From contig OX597819.1 of assembly GCA_951406725.2 (NCBI GenBank), forward strand, positions 19,096,001-19,160,000: a stretch of 64,000 bases of DNA, read 5' to 3'. Every line of letters starts with the position of its first letter. Position 1 is the first letter of the stretch. A model generated the notes under the pieces. The model saw only the letters and a program-made list of their open reading frames with translations. It had not been told where the DNA came from and made no database searches. The position numbers and the translations under genes were made by a program. Shown here piece by piece: positions 16,153 to 41,975 of the stretch. Source of the stretch: Octopus vulgaris (taxonomy: Eukaryota).

Positions 16153-16924
16153 TGTAATTCTTCCCCTCATTGAAACTTTGCAACTGCGCTAAACATCTCC
16201 AGGATTCGTCATATAGAAGATTTGATATGCACACAGCTAAATTTAGAGTAATTTTCTGAACTCTCACACTGTACAATTAATTTTCTGTGCCATTAACTGC
16301 TAACTTCTATTTCTTTCTCTATTCTTTATTCGCAGCGAAATTTTATCAGAATGGTCTCTTCCGGTTTTTAAGCTTTGTGAGTAGAGCTCCGCGAAATAAT
16401 AGTGATTAATTTCCCGAAACAAGGCGATTGGTTTAAAGAGGAATATAGTATTCTGCAAGACAGCTTGAATAGATCACTAAACATGGCAATGTGTATTCTT
16501 AGAGCTCGGTTTCCCGGTTGCTATTCTTTTGCCATTAATCTGTAAGGTTGTGGAAGCCAGTGCTAGGTGAATTATGAAATTCTATCGCCAGGAAACAGGC
16601 AATGATCGGACAAGGAATGGTAATGGCTATTAGTGCGTGTAATGGTTTTACCTGCGGCTCTACGTTGTCCATCATCAAACAGAGTTTACAGAGGTGTGTG
16701 TGCATGCATATATACGTGTGTGCCTGTATGTGTGACGTGTGTATGATGTATCTCTCCGTGTGTGTGTGTGTGTGAGCGTATGCGCAAGAGAAAAAAGAAG
16801 AGAGTCACAGAGTCGAGAACATCTGGAATAATATATGAAGGTAAATTCACAAAATCACTCAGGAAGCACTTACGTACAACTGCACACATACTCGTGCGTG
16901 TATCGTGCGTATATATATATATAT

Positions 16925-16977
<53 letters not shown>

Positions 16978-17050
16978 TTTATATATATATATATATATTT
17001 ATATAAATATATATATAGATATGAACGCACAAAATGTGTGTGATTGTATT

Positions 17051-17120
<70 letters not shown>

Positions 17121-17428
17121 CATATATATATATATATATGCATATATAATGAAGGGTGAAATTAATTAATTTGGAATAATTATCAATTACACCAAGTAGT
17201 CTTCGGCATGTAAAAGTCTCATTCGAGGAAAATTTAAGTAATACTAAGCAATAAGGGTTCAGCAACGAATTGCCTTACCACATACCGAATTTAGAAATAG
17301 CAGTCAAAGGGTTATAGCTATTTCTTCTACTAAAAAGGAGATCTCAGTAAAAACAGCAATTGGAAGGCTGACACAAACAGGTAAGAGAGAATGAATTGAC
17401 TGCAATCTATCATACATTTTTTAAGTTA

Positions 17429-17535
17429 TCTACGGACGTACGTTTCGAAATCAAGTTTTTAGGAAAGCATAAGAATTAAATATTAAATATTAAATAATTC
17501 TATCTTACCGAAACTTCTTTTCTCTTCAGCGTAGA
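17429..17535 (-). ncRNA. Type I hammerhead ribozyme, copy 1
   Basis: Minus strand reads tctacg-CTGAAGA-[76-nt stem II, gaaa...tttc]-GAAA-cgtacg-TC-cgtaga. It has a 6-bp stem I, an intact core, palindromic stem III (ACGUACGU) and a GUC triplet. Predicted cleavage falls between 17435 and 17434. Confidence 0.85.
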
Positions 17536-18027
17536 ATACTATAATCATAAATGATTATATATTGAATTTTGAGATACTAGGAGGCACCAACTCAACTCAG
17601 TATCAGAGCGAGCTAGAATCCGCAACTAGTATCACCGAATTCAAATTTGTGAATGAAACGATTGTGTCAACAGCCCTTCCCACCCGCGTGTAGCCAAAAC
17701 AAGATGCTGTGGTCATCTACTGAGATAAAATATGGTTATCCGTAATAATGAAGGGTGAAATTAATTAATTTGGAATAATTATCAATTACACCAAGTAGTC
17801 TTCGGCATGTAAAAGTCTCATTCGAGGAAAATTTAAGTAATACTAAGCAATAAGGGTTCAGCAACGAATTGCCTTACCACATACCGAATTTAGAAATAGC
17901 AGTCAAAGGGTTATAGCTATTTCTTCTACTAAAAAGGAGATCTCAGTAAAAACAGCAATTGGAAGGCTGACACAAACAGGTAAGAGAGAATGAATTGACT
18001 GCAATCTATCATACATTTTTTAAGTTA

Positions 18028-18134
18028 TCTACGGACGTACGTTTCGAAATCAAGTTTTTAGGAAAGCATAAGAATTAAATATTAAATATTAAATAATTCT
18101 ATCTTACCGAAACTTCTTTTCTCTTCAGCGTAGA
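18028..18134 (-). ncRNA. Type I hammerhead ribozyme, copy 2
   Basis: Identical to copy 1. Confidence 0.85.
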
Positions 18135-18628
18135 ATACTATAATCATAAATGATTATATATTGAATTTTGAGATACTAGGAGGCACCAACTCAACTCAGT
18201 ATCAGAGCGAGCTAGAATCCGCAACTAGTATCACCGAATTCAAATTTGTGAATGAAACGATTGTGTCAACAGCCCCTTCCCACCCGCGTGTAGCCAAAAC
18301 AAGATGCTGTGGTCATCTACTGAGATAAAATATGGTTATCCGTAATAATGAAGGGTGAAATTAATTAATTTGGAATAATTATCAATTACACCAAGTAGTC
18401 TTCGGCATGTAAAAGTCTCATTCGAGGAAAATTTAAGTAATACTAAGCAATAAGGGTTCAGCAACGAATTGCCTTACCACATACCGAATTTAGAAATAGC
18501 AGTCAAAGGGTTATAGCTATTTCTTCTACTAAAAAGGGAGATCTCAGTAAAAACAGCAATTGGAAGGCTGACACAAACAGGTAAGAGAGAATGAATTGAC
18601 TGCAATCTATCATACATTTTTTAAGTTA

Positions 18629-18735
18629 TCTACGGACGTACGTTTCGAAATCAAGTTTTTAGGAAAGCATAAGAATTAAATATTAAATATTAAATAATTC
18701 TATCTTACCGAAACTTCTTTTCTCTTCAGCGTAGA
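18629..18735 (-). ncRNA. Type I hammerhead ribozyme, copy 3
   Basis: Identical to copy 1. Confidence 0.85.
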
Positions 18736-19229
18736 ATACTATAATCATAAATGATTATATATTGAATTTTGAGATACTAGGAGGCACCAACTCAACTCAG
18801 TATCAGAGCGAGCTAGAATCCGCAACTAGTATCACCGAATTCAAATTTGTGAATGAAACGATTGTGTCAACAGCCCCTTCCCACCCGCGTGTAGCCAAAA
18901 CAAGATGCTGTGGTCATCTACTGAGATAAAATATGGTTATCCGTAATAATGAAGGGTGAAATTAATTAATTTGGAATAATTATCAATTACACCAAGTAGT
19001 CTTCGGCATGTAAAAGTCTCATTCGAGGAAAATTTAAGTAATACTAAGCAATAAGGGTTCAGCAACGAATTGCCTTACCACATACCGAATTTAGAAATAG
19101 CAGTCAAAGGGTTATAGCTATTTCTTCTACTAAAAAGGGAGATCTCAGTAAAAACAGCAATTGGAAGGCTGACACAAACAGGTAAGAGAGAATGAATTGA
19201 CTGCAATCTATCATACATTTTTTAAGTTA

Positions 19230-19336
19230 TCTACGGACGTACGTTTCGAAATCAAGTTTTTAGGAAAGCATAAGAATTAAATATTAAATATTAAATAATT
19301 CTATCTTACCGAAACTTCTTTTCTCTTCAGCGTAGA
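19230..19336 (-). ncRNA. Type I hammerhead ribozyme, copy 4
   Basis: Identical to copy 1. Confidence 0.85.
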
Positions 19337-19642
19337 ATACTATAATCATAAATGATTATATATTGAATTTTGAGATACTAGGAGGCACCAACTCAACTCA
19401 GTATCAGAGCGAGCTAGAATCCGCAACTAGTATCACCGAATTCAAATTTGTGAATGAAACGATTGTGTCAACAGCCCCTTCCCACCCGCGTGTAGCCAAA
19501 ACAAGATGCTGTGGTCATCTACTGAGATAAAATATGGTTATCCGTAATAATGAAGGGTGAAATTAATTAATTTGGAATAATTATCAATTACACATATACA
19601 TATACATTTTTGTATATATAAATATATATATAGCTACATGTT

Positions 19643-19699
<57 letters not shown>

Positions 19700-20039
19700 A
19701 TGTATATATATATACATATATGTATATATATATATATATATATATTCATATGTACATGCATATCCCTAAATATATGTATGTTCGTACGATTTGTACCAGT
19801 GTGCATTTGTATGTCTGTGAACGAGTGTAACTGCATGCGTTTTTCTCCGCATAATGATACTATACTAATCTTTTGCTACGCTTGCCTTTTTCGAACGAAC
19901 CGACGTCGCTTAAGATTTGGAAATGCTCAGTTCATCACTCTGACCCTACGATATATTTTCGTTTCATGCTTCTATCAGAACAAACATGCGTTTGATTCGT
20001 TATAATTACAACGTATATGTGCATATATTTTTTTATCCC

Positions 20040-33651: not shown

Positions 33652-36074
33652 TACATGTTTGTTTTTAAAAATGAAACAAATGGCACTTGAAATTTACCAC
33701 AGCTGTGTCGGTAGAAATTCATCACAGATTACACCAGACCAAATAATCCACCATTATCATGTAAAATTTCAAGGGGGCGAGATATTTTACGATCACCATA
33801 ATGAATCCAGCGTCAGTATGCATGTATGTGTGTACGTATTTATGTACGCACATACACACACATATGCATATGTACATCCACATACACGCACATATTTATT
33901 CATTTATTTATTTATTCATATATGTATTTTGTCATGTACGTATGAAATAAAGAATTCCGGCTGAACAAAACTGAAAAGACAATTTTGATCGTGGTGTAGC
34001 TGCCTCGACTGAGCGATTCTTGATTGAGCGAATAGTTATTAAAAATGATATCTCAAATATAAATCCGTCTTATTTCAAGCTGCATCTAGAACTACGTTTT
34101 CGACTGTATATTTCCTTTCAGTTGGCCAAGTGAGGCTTGATCTAGATTTATAAACATATTGTGTTCAAAGCAGCTAATTATTACGCCTTTAGCGCTACTA
34201 ACTCAAGCCTCATCCAGCCTTCAACAAGTCACTTGGAGACACATTTTTATCCTCTTTCGTCCTTTATTCGTCTTTTACATGTTTCATTCGTGAAAGAGTG
34301 ACCATGCTGGGGCACAACATGATTTTACTTGATCGAATCGATCGTCATACTTACATTCGTCTAAGCGTGATATATATGCAACCATGTCTCTTCTGTTGAA
34401 ACCTTAGGTTACGGGGATGTAATCTCACCAACAGCAGTTGCCCGCCGGTCGCCGGGAGACAGCCAGAGGAACAATGGTATACACCCACACTCACAAACAC
34501 ACACTCACACAGACACGCATAGATAGATATGCATATACGTGTGGGTGTAAGTACATATACGTAAATACATGTGTATATATATTTGTGTGTGTGTGTCTGT
34601 GCCTCTGTATGTATTGATATATGTATAAGTGTGTGCATATATACATATATATATATGTATATGTATAAGTGTGTGCATATATACAAATATATGCATGCAT
34701 AAATACACATATATATGCATAGATAAATACATACATGTATACATGCATATACATACACATGTACTTAAGTATATATATCAATAAATTTACTAATTGATCT
34801 ATATTCAGCGAAATCACTTCCATATATTTTTATCACTGCACCCTATCTTTACGTGGCAAGTTTTCTCTAAGTATGAAAGCAATTCGTTGAAGATTTTTGT
34901 GTCATGTATTTCCATATACATAATTTCATGTATTTATTTATTTACATCGTGTGTCTGCAACTGCCATCATTGGTTCAAATTGAACGCTACATAGGATATT
35001 TTGGTCCATCCACAAACACATCGTGTTGCTATTCACTTGGGAACTCTACCAACAGATGTGACAAGACACAGTTAAATGCAAGCATATCGCAGTATATTTT
35101 GCTCTCTCATTTTGATGGCAGATTTGTCGCTTCCGTCACCACTTGCAAAAAACTCCGACACACACCGACACTTGCATACCAGAGGTGAACATCACCATAC
35201 ATGGACCATATAGCACCAATCTTAGAACAGTTTAAACGTGGCCATAATAATATCTTCTATCTATATCTTCAATCTTTATTGACTGCCGTACGTTCACCAT
35301 TTTAAGTTTTATGTCGTTTGATCTATAATTTATGTTACCATGAATGCTTATTTTACTTATTGTTACCGTTTCTTATAAATAATCCGGATTATCGTTGTTC
35401 TTGTTGACATTAGAGCAGTTATGTTTGTTGTTTCTATTTACAATGTTTAACCCTCAGGTCAACGTTGAATAGGCAGACCTGATCAAAGCAACCCATCCAG
35501 CACATTCTTATTTTCATTTGTTTCTATTTTTACAGAAACACTTGGTATACCCCTGTATATGATCACGTGAAGACTGTGAGTTGTAGCTTGAGGGAGAATT
35601 TCAGTATTATATTTAATAATTCAATCGACCTGGAGAAAGGGATTCCTTGTTGTCAGTGTTGTTACTCTTTATACTATTGATATTATTTGCGTCGTTGTAC
35701 TTGATGACTCTTCTTGTCTTCTCCATCATTCGACGAGGACTCATGAATATTTAAACTATAGAATTCAGAGCAAAAAAAGAAAACAAAACAGAACAAATAA
35801 GAGGAGGGAAAACAAAAATTCAATTACAGACTCCTTAATATGTTGTTGTTCGTTTGTGTTTTCAGTTTCCGTTTGGCCTTTTAGCGTGAGACGACATGGG
35901 GTCTGCGTCAATACAAAAGTATGTGTGTATGTATATGAGTGTGTGTGGGTGTATGTGTGATTGTATGTATATATATATATATATATATATATACACGTGT
36001 GTGTGTGTCACTGATCGCACGTGCATGCTCGTGACACTGTTTGTGTCTTTGTGTGTGTGTGTGTGTGTGTTTGC

Positions 36075-36847
36075 ATAGTTCAAATTTACAGAAAAGAAAA
36101 GACCAAGAAAAATATAGGAGCAAAAATTAAGTATTTTAAGTTTAACGCTCGGGGAAAATGGAAAAGCATTTAACGTTTCGAGCAAATGCTCTTCTACAGA
36201 AAGGGTTAAGGGGACAATATGGAGAGAGAATGACAAAGAAATGGAGAGAGTAAAACTGTTCAGAGTTCAACAGACCAGTATATTTAAGTCTATGTCTAGT
36301 CATAAAGTGAGCAATGGTTTCGCATTTCAAAGAGCGTACCTCCATCAACGTTCTATCAGACCTGAAAGCTGAAGACAATTGTAACTCTTCACCTGTGGGA
36401 GGCAGGACTCTGTTACGGCCATTTGGTCAGTTTGTCACCCACTAGTCTGGGTCAGTGAGGACGGGTTATATAGCTTAGGCCAGATACTGTCGGCCAAAAG
36501 AGGATGGAACGAGGCATATATCCCTTGGGTTGCCTTCCGGGTCAATCGCAAAACGGGGAATCCCATACTCGCACCAGGTAGCGTTTGAGATGGATGCAAG
36601 TATCCAGTGATTCAGGGAGTCGTTGAGTATCATTGCTCGCTCGGTTGTACAAAGCTTGCAGCGTTCGCTCCTGTTAATATGGGGATCCGATCGCTCCAAT
36701 ATGCTATACTTGATATCATATAGGGTCCCTTCATCTTTGAGGATCCACACGTGGAGAGTATGAGATGTAAAGAATGGTTTTTCCGGAATCTTGAACGACG
36801 ATGTGTTGTACAGGCGTCACATGAAGGCTGTCCCAGCTGACACAATT

Positions 36848-36850
<3 letters not shown>
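36075..36850 (-). mobile_element. 3' end of a Penelope-like retroelement (Naiad-type), 5'-truncated, between microsatellites
   Basis: A GIY-YIG endonuclease remnant is followed on the same strand by non-coding sequence carrying the variant hammerhead-like motif (36168-36203). Flanks are (TA)n and (TG)n. Confidence 0.7.
36625..36838 (-). pseudogene. PLE GIY-YIG endonuclease C-terminal remnant
   Basis: One frame reads AGTAFM*RLYNTSSFKIPEK...HVWILKDEGTLYDIKYSILERSDPHINRSERCKLCTTERAMIL. This matches the F..R..NH..SF...IW.LK....Y.I.WSIL....C.LC..EK pattern of PLE endonucleases. Confidence 0.75.

Positions 36851-36886
<36 letters not shown>

Positions 36887-41152: not shown

Positions 41153-41975
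<823 letters not shown>

Follow-up and report, generated by a model that had tools for sequence, protein, structure and literature searches.

Two groups of described elements come closest to the repeat reported here, the non-LTR retrozymes of metazoans and the Penelope-like elements (PLEs). In the available text of two reports (PMC7229834; 10.64898/2026.07.22.740005), retrozymes are non-coding tandem units that each carry a type I hammerhead with a 6-bp stem I, a 4-bp stem II and a short palindromic stem III, have a GC content below 45%, and occur in genomes that also contain PLEs. Their units measure 51 to 972 bp and in ray-finned fish average 650 bp (10.64898/2026.07.22.740005, as far as accessible). 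Movement of retrozymes through circular RNA with the help of PLEs is proposed in the accessible parts of both reports, from co-occurrence and pLTR similarity, and is not presented there as demonstrated. The accessible part of PMC8557442 gives 5' truncation, partial tandems, inverted 5' copies, a tail of 30 to 40 bp and a bias toward microsatellites as features of PLEs. According to the portion of PMC11167929 at hand, two internal start sites of reverse transcription delimit the tail in vitro, cleavage and extension take place on both strands of the target, and a dimeric protein is predicted.

A tandem array in the 64-kb stretch of Octopus vulgaris DNA analysed here (the window) has all of the retrozyme traits listed above. 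Its unit of about 600 nt lies within the published lengths and is not unusually long for a metazoan retrozyme, contrary to what was first thought. It differs from the retrozymes of the accessible reports in that stem II carries an insert of 53 to 76 nt, in that insertion ends could be mapped and bear PLE footprints, and in that no pLTR homologue was found among the PLE families examined. With the EN+ PLEs Neptune and Poseidon, as presented in the available parts of PMC8557442, PMC4209133 and PMC11167929, it shares 5' truncation, tail-out inversions and partial tandem copies, a tail that is confined to one end, a pair of internal 3' ends on the downstream side of the hammerhead, and AT-rich or (TA)n targets, but it lacks an ORF, its tail measures about 100 nt rather than 30 to 40 nt, and its inversions follow a strict pairing of two end types (45 of 45 classifiable cases). 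Chlamys PLEs such as MRC1 (PMC8557442, available part) are likewise non-autonomous, multicopy head-to-tail elements moved by a PLE; however, they generally resemble the 3' end of their autonomous partner and most lack canonical hammerheads, whereas the octopus unit has a hammerhead and no detected likeness to the autonomous families examined. No cephalopod retrozyme and no mapped retrozyme insertion ends were found among the literature matches listed, and the supplements of PMC7229834 and 10.64898/2026.07.22.740005 may hold such a family. By complete hammerheads in four consecutive units, where two suffice, absence of an ORF, dispersal, low GC content and length, the element fits the sequence definition of a non-LTR retrozyme; the class is already known, and this family is newly added to it. 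The reading preferred here, held with somewhat more confidence than doubt, is that the array is an insertion of a dispersed, protein-free hammerhead repeat of this class, copied in trans by a PLE enzyme that would have travelled round and round one unit.

As assembled, the array spans 2,448 bp, equivalent to 4.08 head-to-tail units of 599 to 601 bp, and its features are as follows.

17146..19593, minus strand: the array, a single-armed insertion with its 3' end (hammerhead strand) at 17146, site B class
Array 5' end, minus strand: truncated at unit position 47
17146..17744, minus strand: unit 1, 599 bp
17745..18344, minus strand: unit 2, 600 bp, the reference unit for every unit position quoted
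18345..18945, minus strand: unit 3, 601 bp
18946..19546, minus strand: unit 4, 601 bp
19547..19593, minus strand: partial fifth unit, 47 bp, a variable 5' truncation
17429..17535, minus strand: predicted type I hammerhead 1 (CUGAAGA from 17529, GAAA at 17446, C of the GUC at 17435; predicted cut between 17435 and 17434)
18028..18134, minus strand: predicted type I hammerhead 2 (CUGAAGA from 18128, GAAA at 18045, cut C of the GUC at 18034)
18629..18735, minus strand: predicted type I hammerhead 3 (CUGAAGA from 18729, GAAA at 18646, cut C of the GUC at 18635)
19230..19336, minus strand: predicted type I hammerhead 4 (CUGAAGA from 19330, GAAA at 19247, cut C of the GUC at 19236)
17146..17241, minus strand: "tail" between the two fixed 3' ends of the family, the putative reverse-transcription start sites
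17241, minus strand: site A, unit position ~96
17146, minus strand: site B, unit position ~1 (many copies continue up to ~11 nt further)
16910..17145, no strand: (TA)n target, left flank
19594..19745, no strand: (TA)n-rich target, right flank

Differences among the units are confined to two homopolymer positions. Units 3 and 4 share an extra G that is absent from units 1 and 2, at a homopolymer site that varies irregularly across all young arrays. The unit has a GC content of 34%, and no stop-free stretch in the six frames of a dimer exceeds 64 codons, leaving it without an ORF. Unit alignment and reading frames therefore agree with the preliminary description, which had reported four units of about 600 bp without ORFs that differ by homopolymer indels only. 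The head-to-tail junction was also found in contigs of two of the four public runs examined (X4 and X8), and arrays of differing length lie on many contigs of the octopus genome, so that tandem copies are seen beyond this one assembly; these independent contigs speak against the possibility of an assembly artefact, raised in the same description.

A hammerhead descriptor that demanded at least 5 bp in stem I and at least 3 bp in stem II matched four times on the two strands of the 64 kb, once per unit and always on the minus strand, with no further match on either strand. All four units thus carry one complete type I hammerhead with a 6-bp stem I, as originally reported, and both the cut predicted at 17435/17434 and three monomers of 599, 601 and 601 nt follow from the coordinates. 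Stem II consists of 4 bp that close a 68-nt hairpin insert, and stem III of 2 bp within the self-complementary palindrome ACGUACGU. The Rfam comparison that had been suggested as a check returned no hammerhead match at the gathering threshold, nor at E ≤ 10 on 17000-18400, so the motif stands without a covariance-model match, likely because of the long insert in stem II.

Support for the fold comes from related copies. The core is intact in 83 of the 87 aligned loci that cover it. In a subfamily of eight loci diverged by about 13%, N7 is the only core position that has changed, while in stem I one U-A pair has become C-G and one A-U pair G-U, and in stem II an A-U pair is replaced by G-C, amounting to two double compensatory changes and one G-U; wobble intermediates of these changes are present in L122, and the first pair of stem II is broken in four of the eight loci. 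Invariant positions account for 6 of 12 in the core and 236 of 446 elsewhere, so the core is not more conserved, a comparison of low power among such young copies. In 13 loci the palindrome is altered to ACGUGCGU, in which self-pairing, as read from the sequence, is kept through G-U, and at least three related families retain the core and a palindromic stem III despite different stem I sequences. A co-fold of two hammerheads through an 8-bp intermolecular stem III is computed at −49.6 kcal/mol, versus 2 × −18.6 kcal/mol, and a double hammerhead arrangement is described in the available part of PMC4209133. The compensatory changes support a hammerhead fold, with cleavage itself predicted.

The array belongs to a dispersed family. 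A search of the octopus genome with the unit gave 2,658 candidates, the best 40 of which contain 175 DNA matches, and the exact 3'-end motif and the exact pattern of the hammerhead 3' strand occur 1,128 and 246 times genome-wide, against 0 for each reversed-pattern control. A census of contig C1 (226 Mb) yielded 58 loci, which extrapolates to roughly 700 genome-wide. Mapping covered 123 independent loci, 40 from the best DNA matches (the window included), 36 from the hammerhead pattern and 47 from the 3' motif; L216 and L215's second copy, both segmental duplicates, were left out, as were a separate piece in L060 and all pieces shorter than 28 nt or below 79% identity. Four loci on other contigs or distant on the same contig differ from the window array by 0 to 0.7%, and the array falls in the youngest subfamily, at 0 to 0.14% from L034, L035 and L036. 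The genome-wide copy search proposed in the preliminary description thus revealed many dispersed, near-identical copies, which fits its portrayal of the array as a young retrozyme-like element that is mobile, lacks coding capacity and carries a hammerhead.

The insertions have a uniform anatomy. Of the 123 loci, 122 adjoin (TA)n, which in 108 of them flanks both sides; such a target hides any target-site duplications, which in retrozymes exceed 4 bp when present. The 3' ends on the hammerhead strand cluster at site A or site B (62 arms end exactly at unit position 96), and the 5' ends are scattered. Single-armed loci (n = 67) end at A in 52 cases, at B in 12, the window copy being a single arm with a B end, and elsewhere in 3. 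Tail-out inversions (n = 55) combine A with B in 45 cases and have one atypical end in 10, while neither A+A nor B+B occurs. The remaining locus is compound. In public contigs, too, loose ends show TA joined to the unit at A and at B. The two sites lie 193 and ~290 to 300 nt downstream of the ribozyme cut, so that the array ends not at the cut but at internal sites. Fixed 3' ends, variable 5' truncation, tail-out inversions and (TA)n targets make up a Penelope-like anatomy, and by these properties the element behaves as a non-autonomous PLE; that it is mobilised by PLEs is very likely. Because the tail with two start sites reported in the accessible part of PMC11167929 matches, A and B are interpreted as start sites of reverse transcription.

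In the C1 census, arms have a median length of 204 nt, and 5' stops number 45 in 12,920 nt before the cut site versus 11 in 9,625 nt after it, an approximately threefold drop that may reflect mixed processivity alone. An apparent tenfold drop past the cut was largely a sampling effect, intact-hammerhead loci having been left out. A fold-back model, which requires matching 5' ends of the two arms, found no support (6 of 54 within 15 nt, versus 3.3 when shuffled; P 0.10). The 5' ends at positions 286 to 290 are mildly in excess both in C1 (4 observed versus 0.8 to 1.1 expected; P 0.008 to 0.025) and in two samples not selected by motif (5 versus 1.1 to 1.6; P 0.005 to 0.026). One of the five cases aligned poorly (L231), and the exact junction of TA to the cut site occurs once genome-wide. 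This excess at the cut site hints weakly at cleavage in vivo.

Variation among units bears on the template. Substitution divergence, measured on 160 segments from the 40 best loci, was 0.55% for segments of the same arm, 0.59% for segments on opposite arms of an insertion, and 2.07% for segments from different loci. Substitutions private to a locus are fixed in all units in 17 cases (10 of them spanning both arms), confined to one unit in 130 (29 in one segment), and partly shared in 0; at sites covered by at least three segments, the corresponding counts are 12, 120 and 0. The absence of partly shared private variants argues against stepwise satellite growth and in favour of all units of an array being born together from a single unit. 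Shared variants, in 231 locus cases, are fixed across units in 200 and polymorphic within the array in 31, mostly in the mosaic L042 and in one homopolymer column; some insertions were accordingly copied from more than one template. L042 has nine units in two arms that are mosaic for subfamily variants, which suggests more than one template or two insertions. No strand-specific excess of A>G, as a mark of editing, was seen among the shared variants (A>G 15 versus T>C 19). In the sister family described below (19 loci), private variants number 7, 31 and 0 in the same order, divergence is 0.51% versus 1.01%, and shared variants are fixed in 26 cases and polymorphic in 10 (10 of 36).

These data make a one-unit template likely. 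Of the 58 C1 loci, 31 have arms that extend across the cut site, and in 8 of the 58 one arm crosses it twice. Since A and B lie inside the cut monomer, a linear cut monomer would yield at most ~300 nt, and arms that cross the cut site imply a circle, an uncut multimer or a repeatedly jumped monomer as template. A circle accounts most simply for both the homogeneity of units and the regrowth of arrays, and the template unit was probably a circle released by the ribozyme; that this circle was covalently closed is favoured by a narrower measure of confidence than the one-unit template itself. An uncut linear multimer, or linear monomers between which the enzyme jumped repeatedly, with rare cutting and no circles in copying, is an unlikely but serious alternative. 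It would agree with the results reported in the accessible part of PMC11167929, where ribozyme mutants insert normally in vitro, no reads end at the cut, the ribozyme is dispensable and uncut RNA is the main substrate, and also with the weak stem III, the existence of mosaic arrays (L042) and a chimera in L363 (1 of 30) that may be a template jump; moreover, near-identical units would also arise if a young, homogeneous array were transcribed and its RNA left uncut. However, with the 5' truncation observed (median arm 204 nt in C1), linear copying would only shorten arrays and the multimers would need rebuilding, and the 200 of 231 lineage variants that are fixed, together with 0 partial private variants, require a one-unit bottleneck, into which repeated jumps on one linear monomer would still fit.

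The repeat has relatives in the same genome. A young sister family of 557 bp (L106:1850-2420 and L280-L299; 1,698 candidates) has the same two-end anatomy, the tail between its ends measuring 112 nt, and its hammerhead has GUU as the cut triplet and a short loop on stem II. A third and a fourth ORF-free hammerhead family (L250-L279, L319), with 705 and 6,737 exact motif matches, share the tail with the unit; across the genome, a tail motif that the unit has in common with these relatives is present 6,737 times. Related families, followed down to ~55% global identity, are ORF-free tandem units in all examined cases, which suggests an old non-autonomous lineage.

Candidate helpers are present as three young, intact Neptune-type families, with frames of 811, 784 to 802, and 776 to 876 codons, the latter two 56 to 57% identical to the first. 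They encode a reverse transcriptase domain (Pfam RVT_1, E 3e-7) and a linker of the form CGRxNCxxC, their 3' ends lie in (TA)n, and the first family has its own two ends ~37 nt apart; the label "Neptune-type" rests on the linker described in the available part of PMC8557442 and not on phylogeny. The helper is probably a reverse transcriptase/endonuclease of this type. By eye, the Neptune-type elements L169-L184 and L369-L375 contain a hammerhead-like motif with a palindromic ACCGGU stem III, in which UUGAAAA replaces CUGANGA, possibly a U3-A8 covariant core, and one intact family (L366-L368, L376-L384) has a GT-rich simple-sequence end and no obvious hammerhead. In L363:1900-2200, the chimera mentioned above (1 of 30), the 3' region of a decayed Neptune-type element is joined through short microhomology to the 3' end of the sister family, 3 to 4 nt past the predicted cut of the Neptune-type element.

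On the minus strand at 36040-36860, the window itself contains a decayed PLE-like endonuclease end, labelled so by motif resemblance. This remnant (36.1 to 36.9 kb) has 150 protein matches at 39 to 61% identity, itself aside, and no Pfam match; a small hammerhead-like motif near 36160-36205 is part of another repeat. It had been put forward as a possible partner of the array, but it belongs to a different, old family without DNA similarity to the unit, and the unit is absent from 12 loci of that family. The link to Penelope-like elements made in the preliminary description holds at the level of the class, by way of insertion anatomy. Elsewhere in the window, a 153-codon non-repetitive open stretch at 41347-41805 on the plus strand is probably the antisense of a retroelement remnant.

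The array might also consist of truncated pLTR multimers, if the unit is the pLTR of an autonomous PLE that has so far escaped detection. The PLE-type anatomy would suit such an origin, as would the 24 of 57 Xenopus retrozyme families that are homologous to known transposable elements, nearly all of them PLE termini (10.64898/2026.07.22.740005, accessible part), and the mapped loci are 123 of roughly 700. Yet none of the 123 runs on into a PLE frame with reverse transcriptase and GIY-YIG domains, and the unit was thus not found as the terminal repeat of an autonomous PLE, the finding that was to reclassify it. The PLE frames beside the array in L113 and beside a sister tail in L304 are separate insertions into the same TA run as the repeat, and in both loci TA sequence lies between the frame and the repeat. 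The three intact and two decayed PLE families examined contain no DNA similar to the unit, no unit-like terminal repeat was found in two of these intact Neptune-type families (20 loci) and the two decayed ones (36 loci), and the related families are all ORF-free tandem units. A pLTR origin is accordingly improbable. Scarcely credible is the amplification of single copies as a satellite by unequal crossing-over, a model discussed in the available part of 10.64898/2026.07.22.740005, or an assembly artefact, for although the window units are nearly identical and a homopolymer indel is common to the adjacent units 3 and 4, stepwise duplication predicts partly shared variants (0 of 132 at sites with at least three segments), the opposite arms of an insertion resemble each other as closely as neighbouring units do, arrays with fixed 3' ends contain fractional numbers of units, and the tandem junction recurs in independent public contigs.

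Contigs containing the unit were present in 19 of the 21 listed public runs, from four organisms, none recorded as RNA. The whole unit is covered by contigs of runs guessed to be RNA, their type being unrecorded, and because a tandem DNA junction equals a circle junction, such contigs cannot tell a circle from an array. Over window positions 17148-17798, summed contig depth is ~0.2 to 1.2 million in X15 and up to 0.5 million in X16, where, the run type being unrecorded, high copy number in another organism and abundant RNA are indistinguishable. One X15 contig skips 17434-17526, a deletion that starts exactly at the predicted cut.

Under the preferred reading, copying of a single retrozyme unit by a PLE enzyme in trans, an array would be transcribed by read-through on the hammerhead strand, and neighbouring hammerheads would pair through the palindromic stem III, cut, and free monomers of ~600 nt. 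By analogy with other animals, the monomer may then be closed into a circle. As the in vitro work in the available part of PMC11167929 suggests, the PLE enzyme would nick (TA)n, with cDNA starting internally from either A or B, or from A on one target strand and B on the other; the insertion ends themselves are observed. Copying would run a variable distance, usually less than one unit and four turns in the window array, and would leave a 5'-truncated tandem array or a tail-out inversion, the anatomy that is observed. Tentatively, and with less confidence than doubt, the insertions may be taken further as a record of rolling-circle target-primed reverse transcription, in which a dimeric Penelope enzyme copies one ribozyme-made circle from two fixed internal starts at both ends of cut (TA)n, and in which an old ORF-free clan of hammerhead circles hijacks Neptune enzymes by RNA shape and not by shared sequence.

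For retrozymes, this octopus family supplies direct footprints of movement, namely two fixed putative start sites, an A+B rule for inversions, and arrays that were probably born at once from one unit. With young, intact candidate helpers in the same genome, these footprints make both the choice between a circular and a linear template and the identity of the helper testable in the existing in vitro PLE assay.
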